In this document: piece after piece, positions 3,796 to 53,276 of the stretch | Layout of the letters: the number at the start of each line of letters is the position of its first letter | How positions within the stretch are numbered: position 1 is the stretch's first letter | Sequence record: OM386664.1 | Reading direction: 5' to 3' (one strand) | Length of the DNA: 64,000 bases | From: Escherichia phage vB_EcoM_ESCO50 | Notes under the pieces: generated by a model | Database searches by the model: none | Told to the model about the DNA's origin: nothing | What the model saw: only the letters and a program-made list of their open reading frames with translations | Made by a program: the position numbers and the translations under genes

Positions 3796-6030
3796 CTAAA
3801 CACCACAACCCTCGCAATAAGCATCTTGCAGTGCAGATTTACCTACACCAATGCGACTGTTAAGGTAGTACATGGTTTTCATACCTACCGAGTTGGCATA
3901 AATCATGTACTTCAGAGCTTGAGCCAATGATACCTTTTTAGACTTTGCATAGTCAACATAGAAGTCTGAAGAAATAGCTTGACCAGTGAACTTTTGAACA
4001 ATTGCATAACAATCAATCATATCAAAGGTGTCAATATCCCAAGCAATTTCATAGACATACTTCAACTCTTCATAATCTGGAACAATAAACAGCACGTTAC
4101 CAGTTGCAGACTTTTTAGTTAAAATAAAGTCACGAATTGGGTACAAGCCATTTGTCGTATTAGTTGCTAGTGAAGAACTCTCATTAGGCATGTAAGCTTC
4201 TAATACAGAGTTTCGGATTCCACCATTTTCTTTGATACGTTGTGCTAAGTCATCCCAATCATATCGTAGTTTTGCATCATGCTTTTCATCAATCTTCTTG
4301 TTAGCTGTTTTTGGAGGAACCCAGCCTTCAGGATACTTAGTGAACTTCATGTACTCTGGAACGCCACGCTCTTTAGCAAGTCTCAGAGAGGCTTCATGCA
4401 GATAGTAAGAGTGCATCTCTGCCAGTTCATGAAGTTTCGTTTTACCTGCTCGTGAAGAGTAGTTCACGTAGTTCTTCGCAAGGTAATGAGCCACATTTGT
4501 AAGGCCAATCCCAACAGAACGACGCTTCTGTACATGGTTACGCATCGACGGATACGGATAATCCATAAGGTCAATAACGGAGTCAACCATTGCAAGAGCA
4601 TAATAAGCAACGTCAGCGTATTCATCTTCTGAAATTCTCCCTGCAACCAAACTAGCTAGGAAGCAAAGAGCTACCTCACCATCCTCTTTCACAGCATCGT
4701 CTCTGTAAAGGTCTGTCTCTTTCTCAAAACCATACACTGGCAACACAATTTCCATACAAAGATTTGACATCTTCAATGGTTCTTTAAATGGTGTATGTGT
4801 GTTCGCATTGTTAGTGAAGAATGGATACACACGACCTGTAGCATAACGCTGTTGAATAAACAGTTTAGCAATTTCACGAGCCTTTACTCGTCTGTGCTTA
4901 ACTCCTGAATGTACTGCGTGACCAACTGCCATAGCAAACTCATCAGCAGATGCTGTGTAGAACATGTCATAGAGTTTTGGTGCATCTTTGTAAGAGAATA
5001 GCAACCAATCTGTATCATACTGAACACACTGCCAGAAGTAATCGTTTGTGCCGAATGAGTAGTCCATCTCATTAATACGTTTAGAAGGAACCGTTGTAGG
5101 GTGCTTCAAACGCAGTAAATCTTCAATCTGCGGGTCTAGAGCAGTGTAGAAGTTATTAGCTGAACCACCACGACTCTTCTGTTTGTTTGCCTCTACAGAT
5201 GAACGTACAAGCTTGTAATAAGGTAGTTTACCCATGTGCTCAATCGTATTTTGACGGATACCATCACCGATGGTACGTGTCTCCATCAGCATACCAATAC
5301 CAGCTTGCTTTGTGGTCATATCATAAGCAACCTTTGCAGCAATACCAAGTGATTCAGCAGTATCATTTGCCTTAATCAAACAGCATGACGCATAGCCTGA
5401 CTTGGTGGCTCTTAAACCGTTTAAATAAGGCGTAGGAGCGTTAATCTTCAGGTCAGATAGGTAAGTGTACAGCTTGATAACATCTTGTAACCTACGGTGC
5501 TTTGGTTGCTTCTCAAAGGCTTTCATAGCCATACCCATAAACATAAACTGTGGTGACTCAAAAAGTCTTCCAGTTTTAATATCACGGATACCATACTTGT
5601 CTCTGAACTGTTTCAAGACTGCATAACCGTAAGAGATATCTTTTGAGTGTACGATGTAACCTTGCAGGTATTCAAGCTCTTCCTGTGAATAATCCATCTT
5701 CTCCCAAAGTCCTGCTCTCTCCATATTTTTAACGAAGGTAATCAGCGTAGGAACCTTAGTAAAGCCTCCAAAGGCTTCTTTGTAGATAATACCCAAAAGT
5801 AGCCGTCCAGCCATATCTGAGTATTCTTGAGTTTGTTTATCAACACAAACATCAATCATGGCTTGGTGCATCTCTTTTGTAGTGCAACCTTCATAGATAC
5901 GTTTCATAGCTTCCATAGTGACTTCTGACCAGATAATTCCACGTTTATCTGCCCATGATGCCCACTTATTCAGTCTTTCTGGGTCAAAGCTTACTACTGT
6001 ACCGTTTGATTTTTTAATTGTCTTAATCAT
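3796..6030 (-). CDS. nrdA: Ribonucleotide reductase class I large (alpha) subunit
   Basis: 744 aa; contains SNLCMEI active-site-type motif and C-terminal CEGCG tail cysteines typical of class I alpha subunits. Confidence 0.9.
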   Translation of the reverse strand: MIKTIKKSNGTVVSFDPERLNKWASWADKRGIIWSEVTMEAMKRIYEGCTTKEMHQAMIDVCVDKQTQEYSDMAGRLLLGIIYKEAFGGFTKVPTLITFVKNMERAGLWEKMDYSQEELEYLQGYIVHSKDISYGYAVLKQFRDKYGIRDIKTGRLFESPQFMFMGMAMKAFEKQPKHRRLQDVIKLYTYLSDLKINAPTPYLNGLRATKSGYASCCLIKANDTAESLGIAAKVAYDMTTKQAGIGMLMETRTIGDGIRQNTIEHMGKLPYYKLVRSSVEANKQKSRGGSANNFYTALDPQIEDLLRLKHPTTVPSKRINEMDYSFGTNDYFWQCVQYDTDWLLFSYKDAPKLYDMFYTASADEFAMAVGHAVHSGVKHRRVKAREIAKLFIQQRYATGRVYPFFTNNANTHTPFKEPLKMSNLCMEIVLPVYGFEKETDLYRDDAVKEDGEVALCFLASLVAGRISEDEYADVAYYALAMVDSVIDLMDYPYPSMRNHVQKRRSVGIGLTNVAHYLAKNYVNYSSRAGKTKLHELAEMHSYYLHEASLRLAKERGVPEYMKFTKYPEGWVPPKTANKKIDEKHDAKLRYDWDDLAQRIKENGGIRNSVLEAYMPNESSSLATNTTNGLYPIRDFILTKKSATGNVLFIVPDYEELKYVYEIAWDIDTFDMIDCYAIVQKFTGQAISSDFYVDYAKSKKVSLAQALKYMIYANSVGMKTMYYLNSRIGVGKSALQDAYCEGCGV

Positions 6031-6052
6031 TTTCGAATCCTACAGATGAAAA

Positions 6053-6070
6053 GAGCCTCCGAAGAGGCTC
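6053..6070. terminator. Hairpin gagcctc-cgaa-gaggctc upstream of nrdA
   Basis: Perfect inverted repeat read directly. Confidence 0.45.
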
Positions 6071-6076
6071 CCTAGT

Positions 6077-6415
6077 TTAAATCTTGAAAATTTGCTCATT
6101 CTGCCACATATCGTAAAACTTATCGCTTACTTTTGTGACTGAAGAGGTGTGCATACAATTCAGGGAGAACCATGATGATGTATTATCATTCATAAGTGTT
6201 TCAAGTTTTTGTGTAGCGTTCACATCCATGTCTGCAACAACGTAATTACCTCGCATCTTGCAAACAATTCTTCCAAACAAGATTGCACTTCTGCCTCTTC
6301 GGTCATCACAGTACATAACTGTGTCCCCGTGCTTAACATCTTGTCCGATACTATCAACACCTAACTTAGCACCTGAGATGATGTCATCATAAGATAGCTT
6401 TTTTGTTTTAGACAC
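6077..6415 (-). CDS. Hypothetical protein (112 aa)
   Basis: ORF track; ATGA-type overlap chain with neighbours. Confidence 0.5.
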   Translation of the reverse strand: MSKTKKLSYDDIISGAKLGVDSIGQDVKHGDTVMYCDDRRGRSAILFGRIVCKMRGNYVVADMDVNATQKLETLMNDNTSSWFSLNCMHTSSVTKVSDKFYDMWQNEQIFKI

Positions 6416-6740
6416 GGTATTTCTCCAAGTTTCTTTTCAGATACAGCCAACCATAGTCAGTCCTTTCTACACCCATAAAGAGCGGAGCCATCACAACTTT
6501 ACCAAAAGTGTTCCTGTGTTGGCAGATTTCAAAAGAATACTCTTTCTCAATGTCAATCCCGTATTTGTACAGGACTGCTTTTAAAACTTGTTCATTATCC
6601 AGAAGTGTATCTGGAGTCTCACCATACTTTTCAAGTAACGGGTCATTCATAAACACCGTCATAGAAATATTGTAGTTTGAGAAGTGGCTCTTCTGAGCCA
6701 CACCCTCTTTATTAATGTTCTGTGAATCCATTATAACCAA
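6408..6740 (-). CDS. Hypothetical protein (110 aa)
   Basis: ORF track; co-directional overlap. Confidence 0.5.
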   Translation of the reverse strand: MVIMDSQNINKEGVAQKSHFSNYNISMTVFMNDPLLEKYGETPDTLLDNEQVLKAVLYKYGIDIEKEYSFEICQHRNTFGKVVMAPLFMGVERTDYGWLYLKRNLEKYRV

Positions 6741-7467
6741 CCCCTTTTAACCAGCACTTCAGGTTATTAGCATCATAATTAAGTTTCGGGTATGAGGTTA
6801 CATGGAACTGTTCACCATCATAGTAGACAATATCTGCAATCCATAGTCCATTCTCTTTACAGAAGTCTTTATCTGCTTTAGAGGTAATTGGATTAACTTC
6901 TACAAAACCATCTACACCCAAATCCTTTAAGCTACCTACAAGACCTTTGCAGATAACGCATGTCTCAGATACTACCACAAAAAGTTCTTGGCTTTCAAGT
7001 TCTACAATGTATTCACCAAGCTGTACTTTAGGGAGATTCGATTGCTTCATAATCTTCCCATCTGCTGCACGAACAATCGCATACCACTCTTTACTATCAA
7101 CTACTGACATTCTGATAGTACACTCTTGACCAGTACGCTTTTCAATGTCTGCAAGACGTTTTAAAGCTTCTTCATAGTCATCTGTGTACTTCAGGTCGTT
7201 ATTATGGCAAACAGCTTCCATAGCACCATTATGGTCATGTTGTGACAGGTAAATCAAACCGTCAAGAACATATTGCAAATCTGCCTGAGCATCCAGTGTC
7301 TCAATGGGGTCTTTCTCTTCAATTGCTTTTACAAGCTCTTTTGCTTCTTCAAGCATACACAGAGATTGAGATTTTAAAGATTCCCAATACTCATCACTAT
7401 AAGGTTGCTTTTGAGTGTTCCCACAACGAAGGTTCCAGTTTTTTACTGATTCTCTTGAGTTAAACAT
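6712..7467 (-). CDS. Hypothetical protein (251 aa)
   Basis: ORF track; no motif recognised. Confidence 0.5.
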   Translation of the reverse strand: MFNSRESVKNWNLRCGNTQKQPYSDEYWESLKSQSLCMLEEAKELVKAIEEKDPIETLDAQADLQYVLDGLIYLSQHDHNGAMEAVCHNNDLKYTDDYEEALKRLADIEKRTGQECTIRMSVVDSKEWYAIVRAADGKIMKQSNLPKVQLGEYIVELESQELFVVVSETCVICKGLVGSLKDLGVDGFVEVNPITSKADKDFCKENGLWIADIVYYDGEQFHVTSYPKLNYDANNLKCWLKGVGYNGFTEH

Positions 7468-7706
7468 TCGGACTCCTTAAAATATTTGTTAACCTTTAGC
7501 TCTCGTGTTTCAATATATTCTAGATGCTCACGTAGCTCTTGACGTTTAAGCATTAGGTGCTGTATTTGAGATTCAACAGCTTCAACTTCTTTAATTATTG
7601 ACTCTCTAGCATTTGCAAGGATGCGCTCAAGTTCTTCAATCTTGCTGTCAACTTTCGCTACATGACTCGCAGCTTTGCTTTTGTTAAACATTTTATTCTC
7701 TCTCAA
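7443..7706 (-). CDS. Hypothetical coiled-coil protein (87 aa)
   Basis: ORF track; charged heptad-like sequence. Confidence 0.4.
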   Translation of the reverse strand: MRENKMFNKSKAASHVAKVDSKIEELERILANARESIIKEVEAVESQIQHLMLKRQELREHLEYIETRELKVNKYFKESECLTQENQ

Positions 7707-7712
7707 TAGTTA

Positions 7713-8210
7713 TCAAGCACAATTTGCTTTCATTACCTTGTGGATTCTTTTTTCAGCATCTTCATAAGTTTCTTTAGTAATAAACTTAATTGCTGCAATG
7801 TTGGCATTGTAGAAGAGTCTGAGCTTAGAGTCAATCCTTTTTGTCATTACATCGAATTTATGTTGAAGGTTTGCTTCACCATAGACTAGACCGCCTTTTG
7901 TGTAGTAGGTCTGAATAATGTAAAAGTCAAAAAATTCTTTCCCAAAGCTCTCAATATCTTTTTTAATATACTCAGAAGAAGTCTCGTAAGTCAGCCAATC
8001 ACTTTCCTTAGTGACTACCTTCTTCCGAGTCTTCCCAGCAACTTTTCTTTTGGTCACACTGTTAAGCTGTTTCTTTCCTATATAATATTGTCCAGTCTTC
8101 TTACAGTGTACTAAATAGACAAAGCCAAAATGTTTAGTGGGGTCAACTTCCCCACATAAAGATACCCAATGACCATAGGTGGGGCAATTGCCAAATCCTT
8201 TAATCTTCAT
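7713..8210 (-). CDS. Hypothetical protein; weak GIY-YIG-like motif, possible homing endonuclease
   Basis: Segment GFVYLVHCKKTGQYYIGKK resembles the GIY...YIG signature, but it starts ~35 residues into the ORF; weak. Confidence 0.35.
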   Translation of the reverse strand: MKIKGFGNCPTYGHWVSLCGEVDPTKHFGFVYLVHCKKTGQYYIGKKQLNSVTKRKVAGKTRKKVVTKESDWLTYETSSEYIKKDIESFGKEFFDFYIIQTYYTKGGLVYGEANLQHKFDVMTKRIDSKLRLFYNANIAAIKFITKETYEDAEKRIHKVMKANCA

Positions 8211-9240
8211 TCATACACGGCTCCCAATTATATTTCTTGAAAGAGAAATCGTCTTTCTTATTTCTTTCCTGATAAGCTAAGAAAAAGTGTTGCTGCATTA
8301 ACTCTAAGGGTGTTCTGGTAATTGTTTGACCATCCCACGAGACATAAGTGTACGACTCTTTCTTAGCATAAAGCTCATAAATTGCATCAAGACACTCTTT
8401 GTAAGTGGTTTTACCTTCAAGGGCTTTCATTACAGTAGCCTTACCAACGCCCTTTAAACCAAAATAATTATCCGCGTTATCACCAGCCACAGCTTGATAA
8501 CAAAGGAATTTGAAACCTACACCAACTGTCTTCTTAGCTTTTGGTGTTGATTTTATTGGGCAATCCCAAATTTCACCAACGTTGTTATCAGCAATGAAAA
8601 TCAAAGGTGACTTTTCATAGGTCATATCAATGCAGTAAGTCCCTTCAGCTTGGCGAAGGTCTTTATCAATACTCATTAAGGCAGCCTTTTTACCCATCTT
8701 TTCAGCTTTAGCAATAACGATAGAGTCAGCTTCAAATCCATCAAGAATTAGTTTGAACTCTGGTCTTGACAGAAGATATTCACGACAAGCAACTAAGTGT
8801 GTTGGTGTGACAGCATTTTTGCGGTTACCTTGATATTGGTGCTCAAGACCTTTAATGTCTTTATGCTTATGCACACCTTTCTCTGTTAAATAGCCTACCC
8901 AAGTTCTCTCTTTACCAACAACCTTAAGCCATTCCTGAAGCACCTGTTGAGTAGCCATGATAGCTTCTTTTTCACTCTTAGCTTCTTTCCAAGTCTGTCT
9001 TTCCCATTCATCTTCATCAAATGTCAGGCCAAGCTCTTCCACAAGGATTCTCTGGTCTGCTAACCATCTTGCAGCATCTTTCGCATTATCAAATGGCTCA
9101 GACTCTTCTGCTGTGAGTTTATTGACGTATTTATATTTTGCTTTCTCAACTACACAAGCACCTTTATAGGCAATACTGTCAGAGTCAATAAAGACGTGTG
9201 TAACTGAATCGGGAAGTTTTGTTAATGTGTACTTCTCCAT
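8200..9240 (-). CDS. 5'-3' exonuclease / flap endonuclease (RNase H-like, FEN family)
   Basis: Motifs FIDSDSIAY, GFEADSIVIA, SIDKDLRQ and helix-hairpin-helix-like AVAGDNADNYFGLKGVGKATV match the acidic-residue clusters and H3TH region of phage/PolA 5' nucleases. Confidence 0.8.
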   Translation of the reverse strand: MEKYTLTKLPDSVTHVFIDSDSIAYKGACVVEKAKYKYVNKLTAEESEPFDNAKDAARWLADQRILVEELGLTFDEDEWERQTWKEAKSEKEAIMATQQVLQEWLKVVGKERTWVGYLTEKGVHKHKDIKGLEHQYQGNRKNAVTPTHLVACREYLLSRPEFKLILDGFEADSIVIAKAEKMGKKAALMSIDKDLRQAEGTYCIDMTYEKSPLIFIADNNVGEIWDCPIKSTPKAKKTVGVGFKFLCYQAVAGDNADNYFGLKGVGKATVMKALEGKTTYKECLDAIYELYAKKESYTYVSWDGQTITRTPLELMQQHFFLAYQERNKKDDFSFKKYNWEPCMNED

Positions 9241-24435: not shown

Positions 24436-25335
24436 ATGTCACAAGCTGATTTGAGTTACAAAAATATCCTGAACCATGTTTTATCCGTTGGCGAACTGCG
24501 TACTACACGAACTGGAGATGTTATCTCTGCATTTGCTCCACCACAATTTCGTTTTGATATGAGAACTGGTTTCCCACTCTTAACATCTAAACAGGTTTTT
24601 ACACGGCAAGTTATTGGGGAAGCTTTATGGTTCCTGAATGGTGAGAATAAACTTGGTGAACTCCGTTATCGTACTTGGGGTGAAAATGATGGGGAACGCT
24701 GGACTATCTGGTCAGATGATTTTAAACGCTGGTTAAGTTCTAATTATTCTTCTGAACAAGATTGGTTAGAAGATGCAGGTGGGAGAATCTATGGGGTCCA
24801 GTGGAGAAACTTTGAAGGTCATAATGGTTGTGTTGTAGACCAGTTAGAGACCTTAGTAACGAAGATGAAAGGTGATATCACAGACCGTTACATGCTTGTT
24901 AATGCTTGGAATGCAGCAGATATTGCAGCCAACTCGATGGCTTTAGCGCCTTGTCATGTTCTGTTTCAGATTTATATCACTAACGAAGGTGAAGTTGACT
25001 TACAATGGTATCAACGTTCTGTAGACACCTTTTTAGGACTTCCGTTTAACATTGCATCTTATGGTTTTATTCTGGAAGTTCTTTGCAAGATGACTGGATA
25101 CACTCCACGGTACTTGATAGGCGTCTTTGGAGATACTCAGATTTATCAGAACCATATGAAGCAGGTTTATGAACTGATGAACAATGAAGAGTTTCATGCA
25201 CCTACTTTTGAGATTGGTGTGCAGCTTAATACTCTAAGTGATTTAAAACATCTTACTGCAAGTGATTTTATTGGTGGCATTAACAACTACCAACATGCAG
25301 GGAAGATTGAAGCACCCCTGTCAGTAGGTAAGTAA
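24436..25335 (+). CDS. thyA: Thymidylate synthase
   Basis: Active-site region MALAPCHVLFQIY (PCH motif), LWFLNGEN; 299 aa. Confidence 0.9.
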   Translation: MSQADLSYKNILNHVLSVGELRTTRTGDVISAFAPPQFRFDMRTGFPLLTSKQVFTRQVIGEALWFLNGENKLGELRYRTWGENDGERWTIWSDDFKRWLSSNYSSEQDWLEDAGGRIYGVQWRNFEGHNGCVVDQLETLVTKMKGDITDRYMLVNAWNAADIAANSMALAPCHVLFQIYITNEGEVDLQWYQRSVDTFLGLPFNIASYGFILEVLCKMTGYTPRYLIGVFGDTQIYQNHMKQVYELMNNEEFHAPTFEIGVQLNTLSDLKHLTASDFIGGINNYQHAGKIEAPLSVGK

Positions 25336-25344
25336 AACAAAAAA

Positions 25345-25364
25345 GGCTCCCGTAAAAAGGAGCC
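25345..25364. terminator. Bidirectional terminator hairpin (ggctcc-cgtaaaaa-ggagcc) with A/T tracts on both sides
   Basis: Sits between convergent thyA (+) and minus-strand genes. Confidence 0.6.
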
Positions 25365-25378
25365 TTAAAATTTTATTT

Positions 25379-25744
25379 TCAGTGTTCTTCTGTATTCTTC
25401 TCAGTAATAGCTTGGAGGGCTGATACTGATTGAGCCAGATTATTCACACTGTCAGAGAATTTATCAAGAGTTTTGGTAAGTTTTGCGTTTTCACCCTTAA
25501 CATTCTCTAACTGAACTTTCTGGTTCTCCATCCCTAACTGAAGCAATCTCATGTCAGACTGTAAATCACGAATAGCTGAATAGTTACTACTTGTGTAATT
25601 ATCCAACTGTTGTAACTTTGTTTTGACAGACACCTCTTGTTTACCACTTGACACTTGCATGGTGGTATACATTCCGATAACACTAAAAATACCAACTACA
25701 ATTGCACCAATATTATTTTTAAAAGCTTCCTCTAGCCACTTCAT
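25379..25744 (-). CDS. Membrane-anchored coiled-coil protein (121 aa), function unknown (holin/spanin-like topology)
   Basis: One N-terminal TM segment (NIGAIVVGIFSVIGMYTTM) then coiled-coil. Confidence 0.45.
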   Translation of the reverse strand: MKWLEEAFKNNIGAIVVGIFSVIGMYTTMQVSSGKQEVSVKTKLQQLDNYTSSNYSAIRDLQSDMRLLQLGMENQKVQLENVKGENAKLTKTLDKFSDSVNNLAQSVSALQAITEKNTEEH

Positions 25745-25939
25745 TTATTTCTCCCCCTTAAAAGCTTTTTCTAAGTTATCTACGAACTCATCATCAATAG
25801 GTGTGTCTGTTTTACTCGCAAGATATCTTGCAAGCTTAAAGAACACTTTCTCAATCATGTATTCACTTAGAAGGGATAAAATGAGCTTCCAGAAGAAGCT
25901 ACCTAGATTTTTTAGAAGAATTGCTAGGATTGTAGGCAT
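25745..25939 (-). CDS. Small membrane protein (64 aa), possible holin-type
   Basis: Hydrophobic N-terminus, charged C-terminus; downstream of tail-fibre genes. Confidence 0.4.
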   Translation of the reverse strand: MPTILAILLKNLGSFFWKLILSLLSEYMIEKVFFKLARYLASKTDTPIDDEFVDNLEKAFKGEK

Positions 25940-26018: not shown

Positions 26019-28364
26019 TTAAGCAGTTCTTACCCAAGCCATCAGCTTATAGAACTGGTTAGTAACACTAAATGCTGAACCAGAGCCTGTACCGCCAGTG
26101 TTACCGCTTACTGTATGGGTGTGAGCACCAATACCAACACTGTGAGCATGGTTACCATTTGATGCAGCAGTACCAGAGATTGTGTGGGTGTGAGCACCAG
26201 CAGAATCAGTGTAACCCGGTCCTGTACCGATTCTACCACCACCACCGCCAGAATAGTGTGTAGAGTTCTGACCAATCCATGAGATAGCGTGGTTGTGGTT
26301 ACCAGCAGATGAAGTAGAACCACTTACAGAGTGTGTGTGAGCACCAGTCGTGTTAGTGTTTTTTGTTCCGTAGTCAAACGATGAGGTAGTCGCAGAAAAA
26401 CTGTGCGTGTGTGAAGGTAAGTTTCCAACTGCTAACGTAACAGAATCTGAACCACCTGTTGTAGCAACATCTGAACCGTTTGCTGCTGCAATTCTGATAG
26501 TTCTACCAACACCATTGTTCAGATACGTCCAAGTTAGACCAGGCAGTGCTGTATTAGGGTCAACATTACTGTTAAACCACGTTACAATACCTACTGGATA
26601 GATTTTATTCAGGTCTGTAGAGTCACTTACTGCCTGCGCAATCTTCTGGTCAGTTTCTGCTTTAGTGTATGCGCCAATATCTGAAGGGGTTGGTTTAAAT
26701 GCCGTTGAATACAACTGTGCCTCTCCAACATATTCTCCATCTGACCCATAAGCATATGTGAAGACATCAAGACCTCTAGACCCATATGTAAAAGCAATGC
26801 CTCTGGCATGAGCAATACCAGCAGAGTGTGCTACATGGATGGCTAAATCTTTCAGACCCTGCTCAATATCGTTATTTCTTACAAACCCTGAATAATCTTT
26901 ATTGAATGACGCTGTGTCCTCCAACCTATTAGTTGTCCTTACCATTAAAGATTGGTTTAGCAGTTTTGTTTTTAAGAAATACCTAGCATCTAAGTTAGAC
27001 CAATCAGAAGGCTGTACTTGTCCAGTGATTTTGACAGTTTTATTCAACAAGAAATCATCTTGCATATAAATCGTAGTTAAAGTTCTGTCGTTGTGGATAA
27101 TAAGCCTTGTTGGGTTGTCTCTTTCCCCGCTACCAATGTACCATCTTCTCGCATTATCAGCATTATAACCACCAATATATAGCTCATTGTCTTGTGTGGT
27201 GTTCTTTAGCCGTAACAGTGAGCCATTCTGGTTGATAACTTGCGCAGACCTGAAAGTGTTTACATCACTTAGCTTAGCAAGATTACTCAAAGTCCCTGCC
27301 GGAATATATCTAGAGTCAATGTTAGTCCAGTCAGAAGGTTGTACTTGACCAGTTACAGTTAGTGTTTTATTGATATCAACACTTGTCCCTACAGTAATTT
27401 TGCCACTAGTTTTGTAGTTTTCTAGAGCTACGTTATCACCTCCATTATTATTACCAATGTACCATCTGTTGGCACCTGTGCTATCAATCGCTTTAATGTA
27501 CAATGGTTGTGCAGCATTGGCATTCTGTAGCCTAATTACTTCACCATCTTTTTTGAAAACATTTAGTTGGTTGAAAGTGTTAGAGCCACTAAAAGTATTA
27601 TCAGCAGTTAACTGTGCAAATCTCTGATTAGCTACTGTCTGAGTGAAGTATCTAGCATCTAAGTTAGAGAAGTCCGAAGGTTGAACTTGGCCAGTGATTT
27701 GAATTGATTTATTCACAGAGATTAGGTTAGCTAAAATCGCTACGTATGCACCAGATTTAACGTTTTTTAAAACAAGGTTGTCTGTGTTTCTATTATCATT
27801 ACCTAGATACCATCTGTTAGTGCCATCTGCATCTTGACCACGAATATAGAGTGGCATCCCTTGTGTGATATTCTTAAAAATAAGGGCTTCATTGTCAGAG
27901 AGAATATTTTGAGTCCCAGAGAATGTGTTTGTTACAGCAAGCCTTGCATATCTTGCATCATTTTCTTCATTAGTTCTCATCCCAAGTTCATTAGGACTTG
28001 GTTTATTCAAAGTATGATAAACAGTTGCCGACCTTGAAGCATCTGCAATAGTTAGTTTAAGACCATTTGCGTTAATTTTAAAAGTCTTTAAAACATCCCC
28101 AATAGTAATCTCAGAAGAGCCTGTTGGGTCAAATACTGCCTTACCACCATAAAGTAACTTAACAATCCCTAAGTCACCCGTCATAGTGCTACCAGCAATC
28201 TGAACAAATCTTTCAAGTTTAAAAGATGCTAAGAAGTCTTGATAGGTCATTCGACGGTCTTCATCACCCAGCATTTCAGGTCTCTTTTTAACTCTGACAT
28301 GAAGAAGGTCGTCTGAACGAATTGTATCAATTGAGTTTAATTCACTCAACTTGTAATCTGCCAT
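26019..28364 (-). CDS. Tail fibre protein (781 aa) with His-x-His repeat tip domain
   Basis: C-terminal region rich in HTHS/NHNH/AHTHT repeats and Gly/Ser/Thr; ends ...[22 protein letters not shown]. Confidence 0.75.
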
Positions 28365-28384
28365 TATAAATTTTCCTCTTAAAA

Positions 28385-28400
28385 GGGGCTATACAGCCCC
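28385..28400. terminator. Hairpin ggggct-atac-agcccc between the two tail-fibre genes
   Basis: Perfect inverted repeat; T-tract on minus-strand reading. Confidence 0.45.
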
Positions 28401-28410
28401 TGTAAAGAAA

Positions 28411-29559
28411 TTAAGCTGTTCTCTGCCATACATACAATACGAAGGATGGCTGTTCAACGCTAAATGCTTGACCAGAACCAGTTGTGCCAGTTGTGCCAGA
28501 GTGCGAATGCTCACCTGCTCCGGTTACTGTTACTGTTGCTGAGTGGTTGTGGGAGCCAATTGCAACAGAATGACTGTGAGCACCAATCTCAACTGTGTGA
28601 TTATGCGCACCAATTGCTACAGAGTGAGTGTGGTTGTTAGCTGTTGTCAGTGTAGCTCTCGGGTCATAGCTTGCCCCCTCAACTGATAAACCTCTCCAAC
28701 CACCATCAGCATAACCACGATTAATGAATGTTGTTTGTGTTAAACCAGCAGCACTGGTTGTTCTGTTACCATAGTCATAAGTAGATACAGTCTTTGTTCC
28801 ATAGTCAAACGTTGTAGTCCCTTTAGTACCGTAGTCAAAAGCACTGATAGAGGCCGTTGCACCGTGTGTGTGACCACCACCAGTGACGTATACTGAGTGA
28901 GTATGTGCAGGAATGTTGTTAACTGTCAGTGCAGTAGTCTGCGAACCAAACGTTGAACCAACTGGCCTAGAAGCACTATCATAACCTACAAGTGCTCTTC
29001 CTTTTGAAACTAACTCCCAAGTACCTCCACAAATTAAATATGTAGAAGGGTTTGCAGGATTCATAGAGAGATGGATAGTGCCTACTGGATAAGAAGCCTG
29101 AACAGCCTTGTACAAGTTATTTACTGCTCTTGCTGTAGCATACTTATCTGCATCCTCATTATAAAGGTTAGATGTCACCCAGTTCTGGACATTACTTAAC
29201 CCAACCTGTGCCTTAGTGGTGTTGTGTGGGTTACTCTTATCATCAATATGCTGTTGAATAAGATTATTAACCTCTTCTGAAGACATAATCTGTAGATTTG
29301 CTCTTGCCTCAGCTACATTAACAATGTCTGATAAGTTATTTTCAGCAACTAACTGGAGAGCATTAATAACGTTATCTAAACCAATTTGTGTCTTAGTAAC
29401 ACCATGAGGGTTATTTCTTAGGCTTGAGTGTGGAGCAAGTAATTGCTCAAGAGTACATCTCTTATCCTCGATACCCTGTTTAAGATGGAAGATATCACTA
29501 AGGTCAATTGGTAAGGCTGCTTGAGGCAAGGCACTAATTTGAATTTCACCTACTGCCAT
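28411..29559 (-). CDS. Tail fibre protein (382 aa), paralogous HxH tip domain
   Basis: C-terminus AHTHSV...HTHG...NHTHSVAIGAHNHTVEIGAHSHSVAIGSHNHS...GSGQAFSVEQPSFVLYVWQRTA, paralogous to 26019..28364 tip. Confidence 0.75.
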   Translation of the reverse strand: MAVGEIQISALPQAALPIDLSDIFHLKQGIEDKRCTLEQLLAPHSSLRNNPHGVTKTQIGLDNVINALQLVAENNLSDIVNVAEARANLQIMSSEEVNNLIQQHIDDKSNPHNTTKAQVGLSNVQNWVTSNLYNEDADKYATARAVNNLYKAVQASYPVGTIHLSMNPANPSTYLICGGTWELVSKGRALVGYDSASRPVGSTFGSQTTALTVNNIPAHTHSVYVTGGGHTHGATASISAFDYGTKGTTTFDYGTKTVSTYDYGNRTTSAAGLTQTTFINRGYADGGWRGLSVEGASYDPRATLTTANNHTHSVAIGAHNHTVEIGAHSHSVAIGSHNHSATVTVTGAGEHSHSGTTGTTGSGQAFSVEQPSFVLYVWQRTA

Positions 29560-29561
29560 TA

Positions 29562-37592
<8,031 letters not shown>

Positions 37593-49330: not shown

Positions 49331-49406
49331 TGGAGAATCCGAAGGGACTTGAACCCTTATAAACCTGTTTTGCAGACAGGAACATATCCATTTCTGTCAC
49401 GGATTC
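49331..49406 (-). tRNA. tRNA-Cys (anticodon GCA), CCA encoded
   Basis: Manual fold: perfect 7-bp acceptor, T-loop ttcaagt, anticodon loop cu-GCA-aa. Confidence 0.7.
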
Positions 49407-49411
49407 AAAAT

Positions 49412-49504
49412 TGGAGGAAGATACCAGACTTGAACTGGTACACCGATTTCTCAGCTACTGGCAGTTTAGCAAACTGCTCCCTTACCTTTTAGGGTTAATC
49501 TTCC
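49412..49504 (-). tRNA. tRNA-Ser (anticodon GCU), long variable arm
   Basis: Manual fold: perfect acceptor (ggaagat/atcttcc), anticodon stem gcagt/actgc, loop uu-GCU-aa, ~20-nt variable arm. Confidence 0.7.
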
Positions 49505-49505
49505 A

Positions 49506-50240
49506 TTATCTCTGTAATGCGCTCTTCATTTCTGGTGTTGCAATAGTATCAATCACACCAGTTTTACAAGCATCATCAAACCAGTCTGGTAAGATACCTG
49601 CTAAGAACCCATTGATATTCGTTTTAAGGTACTCTGCAATAAGGGCAGCTTCTTCTTCAATCATCTGCACAACTTCATCTGCATAAGCTGTAATCTTTGA
49701 AATACCTTCATTAATCTTACTAACAGCCTGATTAGCTAAATCAGAAATAGTCTCAAGACCCTCATCAATAGCGTCTTGTAAGTCACTTAACACACCGTTA
49801 ACACTGTCTAGTGTGCTGTTAATCATGTCAATAGCTTGCTGACCATACTCTGTAGCAACACCCATAATACCACTAAATGGTGTACAACCAACTTGTTCTC
49901 CTGCTGCACCCATAACATTGGAATACCCCTTTGCTACCTGCATACGTGATGAAAACTCATCAATAGACTTTTGACCATAGTCTGTTAGGGTCTTAGTAGT
50001 TGCTGTAGTGCTTGTAAGGCTTGTTGTAAAGCTGTTTAGAAGGACTGTTGTAAGTCCAGCAGCAACAAGCTTCTCCTGCATTGTAGGGTCTGTTACAGAG
50101 CTAATAGAGCTTACAAGTGATGTAGAGGCAGCTACGGTTCCACCGAGAACTGCTGCACCAGTAATAAGTGGGTTAGAAAACCCTCTACCGGTTTTTAAGA
50201 GATTAAAAATCTCCTTACCTTGTTCTGTCATCTCTTTCAT
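49506..50240 (-). CDS. Hypothetical Ser/Thr/Ala-rich protein embedded in the tRNA array (start trimmed to MKEMTEQ with AAAGG RBS)
   Basis: ORF track 49506..50288 would overlap the UAA tRNA; internal start at 50240 avoids this. Confidence 0.5.
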   Translation of the reverse strand: MKEMTEQGKEIFNLLKTGRGFSNPLITGAAVLGGTVAASTSLVSSISSVTDPTMQEKLVAAGLTTVLLNSFTTSLTSTTATTKTLTDYGQKSIDEFSSRMQVAKGYSNVMGAAGEQVGCTPFSGIMGVATEYGQQAIDMINSTLDSVNGVLSDLQDAIDEGLETISDLANQAVSKINEGISKITAYADEVVQMIEEEAALIAEYLKTNINGFLAGILPDWFDDACKTGVIDTIATPEMKSALQR

Positions 50241-50256
50241 TAAGCACCTTTGAAAT

Positions 50257-50335
50257 TGGTACTCCATATCGGATTCGAACCGATACATAACACAGATTTT
50301 AAGTCTGGCCTCTCTGCCAATTGGAGTAATGGAGC
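50257..50335 (-). tRNA. tRNA with anticodon UAA (leucine anticodon) but short variable region
   Basis: Manual fold: acceptor 7 bp (one G-U), T-arm atcgg-ttcgaat-ccgat, anticodon loop cu-UAA-aa, discriminator A73. Confidence 0.55.
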
Positions 50336-50337
50336 AT

Positions 50338-50413
50338 TGGCGGGGGATGTTGGAATTGAACCAACTTCTTCGATTTCAAAGACCGAGGTTTTAACCTTGT
50401 AAACTAATCCCCT
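50338..50413 (-). tRNA. tRNA-Gln (anticodon UUG)
   Basis: Manual fold: T-arm gttgg-ttcaatt-ccaac, anticodon loop cu-UUG-aa, U8 present; A1-C72 mismatch. Confidence 0.6.
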
Positions 50414-50421
50414 TTAAATCT

Positions 50422-50979
50422 TTACTTTCTCAGTGGATGAATAAAGAATGCCAACATAACTCTTCCCCTTGAGAATGCTCTTTCTTCTGGGACAACACTT
50501 TTTAGTTTCCATCCAATATAAATTCTCCAGTAAAACTGTTTACCAAAGATTTTAATTGATGGGATAAAAGCGAATAATCCCCAAGCATTGCTATTCCACA
50601 TTAGGAGATAACCAGTCTGATTATCTTCAGGGTCAGAACTTACGTTGATATTACCTTTCCACTTAGTAACATCTTTTACATCTCTTCCTAATACATGGTA
50701 AGAGAAGTTATAAGCTTTGTTTCTCCAGAGCCATCCAACTCTCTGCATGTAGACACCCAGCTTACCAATCTTTCTAATCTTAGCCCATCTTTTAACGTGG
50801 CCTTCATCACCATCAATCGGGTTGTCATAGGTCTCCATCCATCTGAATCCAAAAGGTAGATGCCCTTTCTTCTCACTGTAGAATGGAACCACGAAAGGTG
50901 CTAAGATGACTGCTAAGGTTGCTGCAAATGGTTCTAGTAAAGCTAGGAAAATCCATGAAGCATACTTCAAATATCTCAT
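50422..50979 (-). CDS. Membrane protein (185 aa) embedded in the tRNA array
   Basis: N-terminal hydrophobic segment IFLALLEPFAATLAVILAPFVVPF; Trp/Arg-rich remainder. Confidence 0.5.
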   Translation of the reverse strand: MRYLKYASWIFLALLEPFAATLAVILAPFVVPFYSEKKGHLPFGFRWMETYDNPIDGDEGHVKRWAKIRKIGKLGVYMQRVGWLWRNKAYNFSYHVLGRDVKDVTKWKGNINVSSDPEDNQTGYLLMWNSNAWGLFAFIPSIKIFGKQFYWRIYIGWKLKSVVPEERAFSRGRVMLAFFIHPLRK

Positions 50980-50998
50980 CTAAATAGCCTCTTAAAAT

Positions 50999-51076
50999 TG
51001 GTGTTCCAAGACGGATTCGAACCGTCACTAATACAAGGTTTGAGCTTGCATCCTCTGCCAATTGGGATACTGGAAC
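50999..51076 (-). tRNA. tRNA with anticodon CAA (leucine anticodon), short variable region
   Basis: Manual fold: T-arm gacgg-ttcgaat-ccgtc, anticodon loop cu-CAA-ac, D-loop similar to the UAA tRNA, A73. Confidence 0.55.
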
Positions 51077-51077
51077 A

Positions 51078-51152
51078 TGGTACTCACTAAAGGACTTGAA
51101 CCTTTTTCTTCATCTTGTAAGGGTGATGTTTTACCATATAAACTAAGCGAGT
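51078..51152 (-). tRNA. tRNA-Val (anticodon UAC)
   Basis: Manual fold: acceptor 7 bp (one G-U), anticodon loop cu-UAC-aa, U8. Confidence 0.65.
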
Positions 51153-51247
51153 GTGAAAGAGGTCTGAAGTTGTGCCGCTAACTCAACTCCGTGGAATTTG
51201 TTACGGTCTTCAGTTGACACCAGCGGTCTTTCACTTGACCTCTGAAT

Positions 51248-51324
51248 TGGTGCTGCTCACAGGACTCGAACCTGCATTTCCATCCTTACAAGGGATGTGT
51301 AATAGCCAATTATACGAAAGCAGC
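51248..51324 (-). tRNA. tRNA-Thr (anticodon UGU)
   Basis: Manual fold: perfect anticodon stem catcc/ggatg, loop cu-UGU-aa. Confidence 0.65.
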
Positions 51325-51331
51325 ATTAATT

Positions 51332-51406
51332 TGGAGCATCCAGAGGGAATCGAACCCTCAACCTCAGTTTGGAAGACTGTAATTTTCCCGTTTAAACTAT
51401 GGATGC
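51332..51406 (-). tRNA. tRNA-Gly (anticodon UCC)
   Basis: Manual fold: perfect acceptor, T-arm gaggg-ttcgatt-ccctc, loop cu-UCC-aa. Confidence 0.65.
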
Positions 51407-51412
51407 ACTAAT

Positions 51413-51488
51413 TGGTGGAGAAGCAGGGAATTGAACCCTGTACTTAAGTTTGCAAAACTTATGTTTTAACCATGTAAACTACATCCCC
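51413..51488 (-). tRNA. tRNA-Ala (anticodon UGC)
   Basis: Manual fold: perfect anticodon stem, loop uu-UGC-aa, and a G3-U70 wobble pair (the classic alanine identity element). Confidence 0.7.
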
Positions 51489-51494
51489 AATGTT

Positions 51495-51571
51495 TGGTAC
51501 ACCTAGAGAGATTCGAACTCACACTAAGCAGATTCTAAGTCTGCTGCCTCTACCAGTTGGGCTATAGGTGC
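51495..51571 (-). tRNA. tRNA with anticodon UAG (leucine anticodon), canonical 77-nt short-variable-arm geometry
   Basis: Manual fold: perfect 5-bp anticodon stem gcaga/tctgc, loop cu-UAG-aa, 5-nt variable loop, A73. Confidence 0.6.
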
Positions 51572-51828
51572 ATTAAATCTTTTTAGAGAACTTCTAAGAA
51601 CCTAAGCAACAAGGTTCCACAACAAGCTGTAATAACCTTAGAAGCCCTCTAAAAAGACCTAAAAAGGTCTTTGCATAGTCTTGTTTAATCCGGTGACTAG
51701 AACCTTTGGAGAGCTTGATATTATCTCTTCTCCGTGACACCTACTAGGTGCTCTATGAGTGTGTACGACAATACACGCGGGATACCAAAGCAACACCCTA
51801 ATGAAGCTTGGCTTTAAATCTTATTAGG

Positions 51829-51916
51829 CGGTAAGTAAAGGAGTCGAACCCTCACCGTATCTCTACAGTGGCAACTGTTTTCAAGACAGTTTGGCTACCA
51901 TTAGCCGCTACCTACC
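51829..51916 (-). tRNA. tRNA-Ser (anticodon UGA), long variable arm, CCA not encoded
   Basis: Manual fold: anticodon stem aactg/cagtt, loop cu-UGA-aa, ~18-nt variable region; T-stem has two G-U pairs. Confidence 0.5.
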
Positions 51917-51929
51917 CCTAATAAGACTT

Positions 51930-52012
51930 TGGCATGGGACGGAGGAGTTGAACCCCTTTGAAACGGTGTTGGAAGCCGTTGCTCATGCCTTAGAGTCTTA
52001 ACATCGTCCCAT
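51930..52012 (-). tRNA. tRNA-like gene, tentative Trp (anticodon CCA); D-region unusually long
   Basis: Perfect 7-bp acceptor and good T-arm; hairpin with loop uu-CCA-ac; but ~26 nt between anticodon arm and acceptor. Confidence 0.4.
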
Positions 52013-52155
52013 ACTATAATTCGAAGCTTACCGTATTATCTCAACACTGTAAAGCCCCTTCTCAGATTATTTACATGTTCTGGAAAACATGAGATACAGA
52101 CCACCTCCCTACAGGAAGACCCGCTTAGGTCGTCTAAGTAATCTGCTAACTAAAT

Positions 52156-52237
52156 TGGTCGAGGCGGCAGGACTCGAACCCGCATACTCCACTTACTCGG
52201 TTAACGTCTGTTTAGAAGACAGATGAGATACGCCCCG
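52156..52237 (-). tRNA. tRNA-like gene, tentative Arg (anticodon UCU); non-canonical arm spacing
   Basis: Acceptor (one G-U) and T-arm are clear; perfect hairpin tctgt-cttctaa-acaga; spacing leaves no room for a normal D-arm. Confidence 0.35.
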
Positions 52238-52485
52238 TAATTATCTTTAAAGACTCTCTTAGAAAGCCCTTAAAGATGCCCACCTTATTAATCATACCGT
52301 GGGCTAGTACGCCAAATTCTTTGATGAGGGATTGGAAGACCTCACTGGTGTTTAGCCTATCAAGCTACTGCCAGAAAAACATTGTCGTTTGCATTTATTT
52401 TAAATTTGCAAAATAGACGCTACGCAACGAAAACTAAGGGTACTATAAAGTGGTCACATCATTATTCTGCTACACTTCCATTAAA

Positions 52486-52625
52486 TTATCTTTGTAGATA
52501 AGCTACCCAGACTTGCTTAAGGTCTGTAGCGATGTGACTTTTTGGGTTTAAATCTAGAATTTACCCTTTCACCCTTTGTGGTCGCATACTCACAGGTAAG
52601 CTTAATAACTTATCTACAAAGATAA
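52486..52625. ncRNA. Candidate structured ncRNA: perfect 17-bp terminal inverted repeat enclosing ~106 nt with internal hairpins
   Basis: 52486-52502 ttatctttgtagataag is the exact reverse complement of 52609-52625; interior has hairpin cagac/gtctg and others; no T-loop. Confidence 0.3.
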
Positions 52626-52673
52626 TTACCAGACCGTTGTTTATCATCTTAACTAGATATCTCATAAAGTGTT

Positions 52674-52761
52674 TGGTGTGCCGTGTAGGAGTCGAACCTA
52701 CCGAGTCTCAATGACAAGGGATTTACAGTCCCCACCGCTACCATCTACGGGATAACGACAC
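52674..52761 (-). tRNA. tRNA-Tyr (anticodon GUA), long variable arm
   Basis: Manual fold: perfect T-arm gtagg-ttcgact-cctac, anticodon loop cu-GUA-aa, 16-nt variable region, acceptor with one G-U, U8. Confidence 0.6.
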
Positions 52762-52830
52762 ATTTAATTTCTATTCAGGCTAAGGACTTGCACCTTACAA
52801 ATCGGTGAGCAATCGCTTCTCTCCTGAATT

Positions 52831-52907
52831 TGGCGGTTAGTCAGGGATTCGAACCCTGTGCCATTCGCTTAACAGGCGACCGCACATACCTTATGTGCTT
52901 CCTAACC
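52831..52907 (-). tRNA. tRNA-Asn (anticodon GUU)
   Basis: Manual fold: perfect T-arm caggg-ttcgaat-ccctg, loop cu-GUU-aa. Confidence 0.6.
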
Positions 52908-52992
52908 ATGTTTAGTATTACCAGACCGTATCTTTCAATTTTTTCTGCTAAAAATTTAATAAATATTGCTGTAAACGGTCTTCTGTAAAATT

Positions 52993-53069
52993 TGGAGGCG
53001 GGTGCAGGAGTCGAACCTGCCGATACCATGCTAATGAGACATGTGAGACGCCCTTTCTCTATACCCGCA
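52993..53069 (-). tRNA. tRNA with anticodon CAU (Met, or Ile if C34 is modified)
   Basis: Manual fold: perfect T-arm gcagg-ttcgact-cctgc, loop cu-CAU-ua; acceptor register ambiguous at the 1-72 pair. Confidence 0.5.
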
Positions 53070-53199
53070 ATTCTTAATGACCAGACCAAATCTCTTCTTT
53101 GTCCGATTTACCTTCAGGTGAATAAGATTAAGTTTGCTGTAATTGGTCTTCTGTCAAAACTGGCGTTCCAGAAGGGATTTGTCTACTGGAACATTAATT

Positions 53200-53276
53200 T
53201 GGTCTCTGTTGGAGGACTTGAACCTCCGGCCTTACCGCCCCAAACGGAACGCTCTACCAAGCTGAGCTAAACAGAG
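53200..53276 (-). tRNA. tRNA-Pro (anticodon UGG)
   Basis: Manual fold: perfect acceptor (ctctgtt/aacagag), perfect T-arm, loop uu-UGG-gg with G37. Confidence 0.65.

Follow-up and report, generated by a model that had tools for sequence, protein, structure and literature searches.

Long and short tail fibres with gp37-type tips and a mosaic fibre locus in the Felixounavirus Escherichia phage vB_EcoM_ESCO50

Fibres of the closest described phages and the ESCO50 locus

Phages of the genus Felixounavirus carry two kinds of tail fibre with tips resembling that of phage T4 gp37; this two-fibre architecture is already known for the genus and is an ordinary component of its virion. The range of bacteria open to infection by a phage is set by the tips of its tail fibres, and Felix O1-like phages serve in Salmonella diagnostics and as components of phage cocktails. 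Here we describe the corresponding locus of Escherichia phage vB_EcoM_ESCO50 (record OM386664.1), positions 26,019 to 29,559 of a stretch of 64,000 nucleotides that we call the window. By DNA identity and synteny, the window is part of a Felixounavirus genome (Felix O1-like, Ounavirinae; myophage). We consider it very likely that the locus encodes the long tail fibre (LTF) and the short tail fibre (STF) of this genus, both with gp37-type tips, and that it evolves by module-swapping recombination.

The C-terminal regions of gp74 and gp75 of phage VpaE1 were reported in 2015 to be homologous to the T4 gp37 adhesin (PMC4690856). These fibres are conserved at the N-terminus and less conserved at the C-terminus, and the long one is highly variable in its middle part; both proteins appear in the figure of virion proteins identified by mass spectrometry (PMC4690856). 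The most complete description comes from cryo-electron microscopy (cryo-EM) of phage Bas63 (Sci Adv 2025, PMC12609058), in which both fibres are seen on the virion, the STF (gp26) measuring 430 Å and the LTF (gp27) 630 Å. Both tips are gp37-like and consist of a collar, a six-stranded needle with His-x-His (HxH) motifs (seven in the STF, six in the LTF) and a small head; the LTF is attached to gp25, a platform resembling T4 gp9, and the STF to wedge 2 (PMC12609058). The published model is a sequential use of the long and then the short fibre. The variability of the shaft was unexpected to the Bas63 authors, whose discussion covers tolerance of mutations, host recognition or evasion of defence, but not recombination (PMC12609058).

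The gene order in the window is that of Bas63 (JohannRWettstein) gp19-gp27, the two fibre genes corresponding to bas63_0026 and bas63_0027: the genes are orthologous, in the same order and next to the same baseplate neighbours. The STF is 98% identical to gp26, with the same seven HxH motifs and an identical tip, and the LTF tip, with six HxH motifs, shares 93% identity with the gp27 tip. Because of this level of identity, the structural description of Bas63 transfers directly. What differs is the rest of the LTF (72% identity overall), whose shaft modules 1-3 and pre-collar module are other alleles, and a motif beside the head, HHxH (HHNH) in Bas63 and NHxH (NHNH) in the window. VpaE1 differs in other places: identity to the window is 48% in the STF cassette and 70% in the pre-collar block of the LTF, and it infects E. 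coli B, with a truncated lipopolysaccharide (LPS) core.

In T4 gp37 (PDB 2XGF), as in both fibres, an FDYGTK motif is present, the HxH motifs keep the same register, the head is inserted where the ascending strand gives way to the descending one, and the C-terminal strand is hydrophobic; identity is roughly 40-55% and confined to the needle. In gp37, each HxH from three chains ligates one iron. The T4 protein forms the distal part of a fibre built from four proteins and depends on gp38, whereas in the window a single polypeptide makes up the whole LTF. The receptor of the T4 head is OmpC or LPS; for Felixounavirus no protein receptor is known, only LPS-related ones. The tip of T4 gp12, the short fibre protein, holds a single metal bound by His residues. 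The STF showed no homology to gp12, either in the shaft or in the receptor-binding domain; gp12 is without a long HxH needle, and the STF is more like a shortened long fibre, as the Bas63 authors note (PMC12609058).

Two intact genes with paralogous tips

A first-pass annotation, made from the sequence and its open reading frames (ORFs), had read the locus as two tail-fibre genes. This stands on PHROG and Pfam matches, on baseplate synteny and on the identity to Bas63 proteins seen by cryo-EM. The STF matches phrog_2097 across residues 1-381 (E 2e-127) and Pfam Gp10_C above the cutoff (E 8.5e-18). It lies directly after the gene of the LTF platform and has the conserved N-terminus, gp10-like collar and HxH tip of its family; the family length range is 382-402 aa, and Pfam PF21939 is found in 73 database homologues of about the same length. 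The LTF matches phrog_4277 at positions 1-780 of 780 (E 0) and Pfam gp37_trimer in three stretches (E 1e-59). Besides this full-length match, it has a conserved N-terminus, beta-helix repeats and a gp37-like tip, and it occupies the expected position, with the STF gene before it and a small ORF and a 'holin' after it, a synteny kept in eleven relatives. Identity to relatives is 98-100% for the STF (six relatives) and 72-88% for the LTF.

Both ORFs run uninterrupted on the minus strand, separated by 46 nt. A pseudogene reading of either copy is ruled out, as the ORFs are intact, the PHROG matches extend end to end or nearly so, and the lengths equal or nearly equal those of the orthologues in the eleven relatives.

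The C-terminal domains had been described as paralogous, rich in HxH motifs and ending in a shared motif, and each of these points was confirmed, the strings quoted in the annotation being present. Six HxH motifs occur in the LTF, at aa 652, 676, 690, 725, 739 and 748, three on either side of aa 693-724. The STF has seven, at aa 219, 230, 310, 319, 328, 337 and 351, two before and five after aa 233-309. Composition-preserving shuffles gave means of 0.43 (LTF) and 1.0 (STF), and the observed count was reached in 0 of 5000; a chance or low-complexity origin of the motifs is thereby ruled out. The two modules align with each other in BLASTP (LTF 562-781 with STF 136-382, 31% identity, E 2e-16). 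They close on a common terminal motif, G(S/T)GSG(S/Q)AFSV...W(V/Q)RTA; the C-terminus of the STF reads TTGSGQAFSVEQPSFVLYVWQRTA. In the alignment of the 73 STF homologues, G361, W378 and R380 are invariant, and the C-terminal segment of the LTF is 100% conserved in nine relatives.

The annotation had also referred to known fibre tips in which HxH repeats coordinate metal, and homology points the same way. In phmmer searches against the PDB, both modules match the iron-binding HxH tip of T4 gp37, 2XGF (LTF 647-760, E 3.7e-18; STF 146-352, E 2.8e-13), and the STF also matches the C-terminal domain of T4 gp10. A three-way alignment places the HxH motifs of both fibres in register with H883, H915, H929, H966, H980, H989 and H998 of gp37, and the His-poor insert of each fibre at the position of the T4 head domain. 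Ahead of the needle lies a collar of the gp10/gp11/gp12 kind. We set the domain boundaries from this alignment and from the description of Bas63.

Because the HxH motifs and the C-terminal strand align with T4 gp37, the chain can be read in the order collar, needle, head, needle, collar. On this alignment, the GSG..AFSV..W.RTA C-terminus is probably not the receptor-contacting end and would lie back at the collar. The distal, variable, receptor-contacting part is predicted to be the insert between the HxH runs (LTF ~693-724, STF ~273-306). In the STF, this head sits within the His-free insert between HxH 230 and 310, and its identity falls to 19-26% in alternative alleles.

A monomer model of the STF, predicted from the 73-sequence alignment, gave pLDDT values of 84-93 for the collar (~150-210) and below 50 for the head (280-304), its lowest-confidence part; short strands coincide with most HxH motifs. 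With this model, Foldseek returned no match at E<=1e-3, the best matches being gp10 domains. The model thus lends support to the collar fold, while an interwoven trimeric needle lies beyond monomer prediction. No homologue of T4 gp38 was found in the window (best tblastn E 0.19; gp57A was not searched). A missing neighbour of the gp38 type concerns T4 assembly and not the fold, and membership in the fold family is unaffected.

Block-wise mosaicism of the fibre locus

We compared the fibre locus with that of eleven relatives. The LTF is conserved among them in two stretches, aa 1-120 and the collar with needle (561-680). The shaft modules, the pre-collar block (~445-563) and the head (681-720) alternate between about 100% and 7-45% identity, and different relatives match the LTF in different blocks. 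For the seven Felixounavirus relatives whose LTF is intact, identity ranges from 90 to 100% in aa 1-120 and from 72 to 100% in the 121-160 bin; the collar is 92-100% conserved in Felixounavirus relatives. Adjacent shaft bins with 26-45% versus 92-100% identity indicate that modules were exchanged independently among the relatives. The N-terminal region of the STF is 88-100% conserved within the genus.

The pattern is sharpest at the DNA level. Across 25 kb of its structural module, the window is 98.6-99.0% identical to Escherichia phages ESCO56, ESCO45 and ESCO49, and the fibre locus matches ESCO56 with 97.9% identity across 92% of its length. Differences from ESCO56 number 25/2851 at 27050-29900, rise to 232/385 at 26700-27020 and fall back to 26/672 at 26019-26690. 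The middle block (26700-27020) differs from phage skuden at only 5/321 positions, and tblastn finds the pre-collar block at 99% identity in skuden only. From informative sites, the 5' crossover falls at 27033-27062; the 3' crossover of the skuden-like block lies between 26561 and 26678. The LTF is a natural chimera, an ESCO56-like backbone with a skuden-like cassette, absent as such from the searched phage collection.

Each shaft module closes with a conserved linker, NK..(I/V)TGQVQPSD(F/W)(S/T)N(L/I)D(A/S)RY. It is encoded by a 71-nt DNA repeat (family D1) present in three copies, at 26976-27046, 27303-27373 and 27645-27715, and the 5' crossover adjoins and partly overlaps the first of these. 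In the distal fibre locus of T-even phages, the gp37/gp38 'His boxes' are conserved motifs that flank swappable adhesin segments. The ESCO50 locus resembles it in that variable segments are bounded by conserved motifs at crossovers (in the LTF the linker repeat, and on either side of the heads the HxH scaffold); it differs in that its best-defined crossover is found in a shaft linker, not in a His box.

Because of this block pattern, recombination is the main process behind the variability of the LTF, and the recombination hotspot envisaged in the first-pass annotation is upheld by the mosaic comparison with relatives, down to sharp DNA breakpoints. Exchange takes place mostly in the shaft modules and the pre-collar module; in the tip only the head insert varies, and the scaffold of collar and needle is conserved.

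The STF varies in discrete allele classes. With its cassette as query (aa 201-320), tblastn returned 34 records at 98-100% identity, nearly all of them phages whose isolation host was E. coli C or a derivative of E. coli K-12. The other tiers lie at 80-86% and then all at 54% or less, including VpaE1 (E. coli B) at 48%. The allele found here has two ascending and five descending HxH motifs, the alternative allele four and five. The correlation of allele and host fits a receptor-binding role, although it is confounded by isolation series.

Single residues also vary at the apex of the LTF head in otherwise identical tips: R in the window and Bas63, W in ESCO56, K in ESCO45, S in skuden, Y in Alf5 and CL1. 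A few residues before the apex, NST alternates with KTQ or NSQ. The apex substitutions look like point-mutational fine-tuning of a contact loop.

Several database records bear on the range of these fibres. Weaker tblastn matches (<60%) to the pre-collar block 26685-27044 (LTF aa 441-560) were found in 41 Aeromonas phage records and in a few Hafnia and Stenotrophomonas phages, and because of these matches the module appears to be shared well beyond Ounavirinae. Escherichia phage mistaenkt (Suspvirus; locus 4330-6531) has an LTF of 733 aa without the head insert and with one ascending and one descending HxH fewer; it keeps four HxH, with a shortened, apparently headless needle. The LTF of Escherichia phage EC6 (NC_027369; locus 6803-9173) is split in its annotation into two overlapping coding sequences (541 aa and ~260 aa), which suggests a frameshift or sequencing error in the record. 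Felixounavirus fibre genes are also carried by MG065664 ('Campylobacter phage A132') and by one 'Staphylococcus' record, with for example 70% identity to the STF tip; these records are probably mislabelled or contaminated rather than cases of cross-genus transfer.

Proposed architecture, competing explanations and context

We now propose a working scheme for the two fibres. Each would be a homotrimer docked on the baseplate by its conserved N-terminus, with the gp25-like platform, whose gene lies immediately upstream, receiving the LTF and wedge protein 2 the STF. In the C-terminal tip, a collar like that of gp10/gp12 would be followed by a beta needle of six strands and, at its far end, by a small head touching the receptor. 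Each chain is expected to climb the needle, form the head and run back, which would leave the conserved terminus (...AFSV...W.RTA) packed against the collar. At each HxH motif along the needle, the three chains together would offer six His ligands to one metal ion (Fe2+ in T4), which by analogy predicts six metal sites in the LTF and seven in the STF. The LTF probably makes the first, reversible contact, and the STF, stowed along the sheath, would engage next; both probably recognise structures of the LPS core. Host range probably evolves by homologous recombination between related phages, the swapped units being the beta-helix modules of the LTF shaft, the pre-collar module, the LTF head and the needle/head cassette of the STF, with conserved linker and scaffold sequences as crossover sites. 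We infer the trimer, the metal binding, the head as receptor contact, the order of engagement and LPS as the receptor from homology and the literature.

Several points weigh against this scheme or parts of it. The Pfam Gp10_C score of the LTF collar is weak (22.5 bits, under the cutoff of 27). The correlation of STF allele and host may partly reflect sampling, many records coming from isolation series on MG1655 or DH5alpha. With no homologue of the T4 gp38 chaperone in the window, assembly may differ from that of T4. An order with the LTF first and the STF second is suggested by analogy with T4. Fibre density in the Bas63 map is too poor for side chains, and metal sites were not seen there (PMC12609058). 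Finally, a large receptor screen (2026 preprint) assigned no receptor to the genus. Receptors are known for the genus only as LPS-related, Bas63 needing an intact LPS core. The texts of the PhageMaP preprint and of the 2026 receptor-screen preprint hold nothing specific on a gp26/gp27 receptor or on gene-level essentiality.

The two tips could be redundant, binding the same epitope of the LPS core so that their duplication only raises avidity. Bas63 does depend phenotypically on one receptor class, the intact LPS core, both tips belong to one fold family, and genome-wide screens yielded no protein receptor for the genus. Yet the head inserts of LTF and STF are unrelated in sequence and length, and they vary independently, an identical STF cassette being found in phages that differ in LTF head, shaft and pre-collar modules; the fibres also differ in length and attachment site. 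We therefore hold redundancy to be rather unlikely, and dual specificity, raised in the first-pass annotation, is plausible given heads that are unrelated and vary independently. Much less probable still is that the 382-aa protein is a structural baseplate pin or sheath brace and not a receptor-binding fibre. In mistaenkt it is annotated as 'baseplate wedge subunit and tail pin', its Pfam match is the C-terminal domain of the baseplate protein gp10, and in Bas63 it lies along the sheath, its head contacting sheath ring 10 in the extended state. T4 short fibres, however, are likewise stowed before infection, and the protein has a full gp37-type tip with seven HxH motifs and a head insert; variability is greatest in its head/needle cassette, whose classes correlate with the host. 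Together with the conserved N-terminus, this is the signature of a receptor-binding protein.

As for the origin of the variation, an accumulation of point mutations under diversifying selection or relaxed constraint, in place of recombination, would agree with the factors listed in the Bas63 paper (mutation tolerance, variable host recognition, escape from defence; PMC12609058) and with the isolated apex substitutions (R, W, K, S, Y) between near-identical phages. It is nonetheless very improbable, for clock-like mutation cannot give a patchwork in which different relatives are near-identical in different modules, nor the steps in divergence from ESCO56 around a middle block that is nearly that of skuden; the contribution of point mutation is probably limited to fine-tuning at the apex. 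That the variation arises in situ, through gene conversion between the paralogous tips or the action of a diversity-generating retroelement, we regard as hardly credible. In its favour, a distance of 2.4 kb separates the paralogous modules, which have some short imperfect repeats of DNA (D2, D4, D9) in common. But these inter-paralogue repeats span only 22-58 nt at 64-91% identity, blastn finds neither significant DNA similarity between the genes nor a template copy of either tip in the 64-kb window, and exact donors of the variable blocks exist in other phages. Exchange of modules between related phages thus remains the preferred reading.

Table 1 Features of the fibre locus and its neighbourhood (window coordinates; aa, amino acids)
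Feature	Coordinates	Strand	Remarks
STF gene, 382 aa	28411-29559	-	Orthologue of Bas63 gp26 and VpaE1 gp74
STF N-terminal baseplate-binding region and helical shaft	29155-29559	-	Two NPH..TK.Q(I/V)GL.NV repeats (aa 50, 110); helices predicted at 66-106
STF collar domain, ~aa 136-215	28915-29154	-	
STF variable needle/head cassette, ~aa 187-366	28461-29000	-	Discrete allele classes
STF head domain, ~aa 273-306	28642-28743	-	Predicted distal receptor-contacting part
STF C-terminal return segment	28414-28494	-	GSGQAFSV...WQRTA
LTF gene, 781 aa	26019-28364	-	Orthologue of Bas63 gp27 and VpaE1 gp75
LTF N-terminal baseplate-binding region and proximal shaft, aa 1-150	27915-28364	-	Conserved; function from Bas63 cryo-EM description
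Three LTF beta-helix shaft modules, ~110 aa each (aa 151-239, 240-353, 354-462)	26979-27914	-	From linker and RWY(I/L)G motif positions
LTF exchanged pre-collar cassette, ~aa 445-563	26678-27033	-	Skuden-like DNA, rest of gene ESCO56-like
LTF collar domain, ~aa 562-648	26421-26681	-	Aligns with STF collar and T4 gp37 collar
LTF needle, ascending strand	26289-26420	-	HxH at aa 652, 676, 690; align with T4 gp37 H883, H915, H929
LTF head domain, ~aa 693-724	26193-26288	-	Predicted distal receptor-contacting loops; variable
LTF needle, descending strand	26109-26192	-	HxH at aa 725, 739, 748
LTF C-terminal return segment	26022-26108	-	GSGSAFSV...WVRTA; predicted return to collar; aligns with T4 gp37 C-terminus ...NIAFNYIVRLA
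LTF-platform protein gene, 100 aa	29562-29864	-	Bas63 gp25 orthologue, 96% identical; phrog_4141 full length
64-aa ORF directly downstream of LTF	25745-25939	-	phrog_402, function unassigned by PHROG; hydrophobic N-terminus
121-aa ORF downstream of LTF	25379-25744	-	N-terminal hydrophobic stretch; 'holin' annotation in several relatives
Bidirectional terminator-like hairpin	25343-25366		9-bp stem and T run on minus strand; 8-bp stem on plus strand

Upstream of the fibre genes, on the minus strand, lie baseplate genes for the 100-aa platform protein, a DUF2612-like protein of 285 aa and a Baseplate_J protein. Within the wedge-1 baseplate gene (29864-30721, minus), a 175-aa ORF in antisense (30117-30644, plus) is most likely spurious. 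Downstream, the 64-aa and 121-aa ORFs gave no informative Pfam matches. The 64-aa ORF is 92-98% identical across relatives whatever their tip allele, unlike typical tip-specific chaperones; the order of fibre, small ORF and holin loosely resembles 37, 38 and t of T4, but no similarity to gp38 was found. The hairpin, a strong one, separates the fibre/'holin' operon, a late transcription unit, from the convergent thymidylate synthase gene (24436-25335, plus). A promoter scan around the fibre genes found 15 candidates against 12.7 expected in shuffles, which is not above expectation, and its result was not used. Further along the window, 15 tRNA genes are clustered on the minus strand at 49331-53276 (Cys, two Ser, three Leu, Gln, Val, Thr, Gly, Ala, Tyr, Asn, Met and Pro); about 22 apparently functional tRNAs are a feature of Felix O1-like genomes according to the VpaE1 paper (PMC4690856).

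The two-fibre architecture being established for the genus, the finding adds no new biology. Our additions are modest: a coordinate-level mosaic map, an ESCO56/skuden chimera of the LTF with its crossover at a linker, and discrete allele classes of the STF. A bolder possibility, to which we give a rather low probability, is that the LTF shaft and pre-collar modules are exchangeable specificity cassettes, or that gp37-type tips fold without a gp38-like chaperone. In the former case, shaft modules swapped at conserved linkers would bind surface glycans laterally or set the geometry of the fibre, and the chimera of ESCO56 backbone and skuden module would have a host range unlike that of either parent; in the latter, HxH needles would have an unrecognised assembly route. 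For the genus, the mosaic suggests recombination, beyond mutation, as an explanation of the shaft variability noted in the Bas63 paper. In practice, the value of this analysis lies in a coordinate-level map of conserved scaffold and swappable segments, as is needed for fibre swaps aimed at host range.

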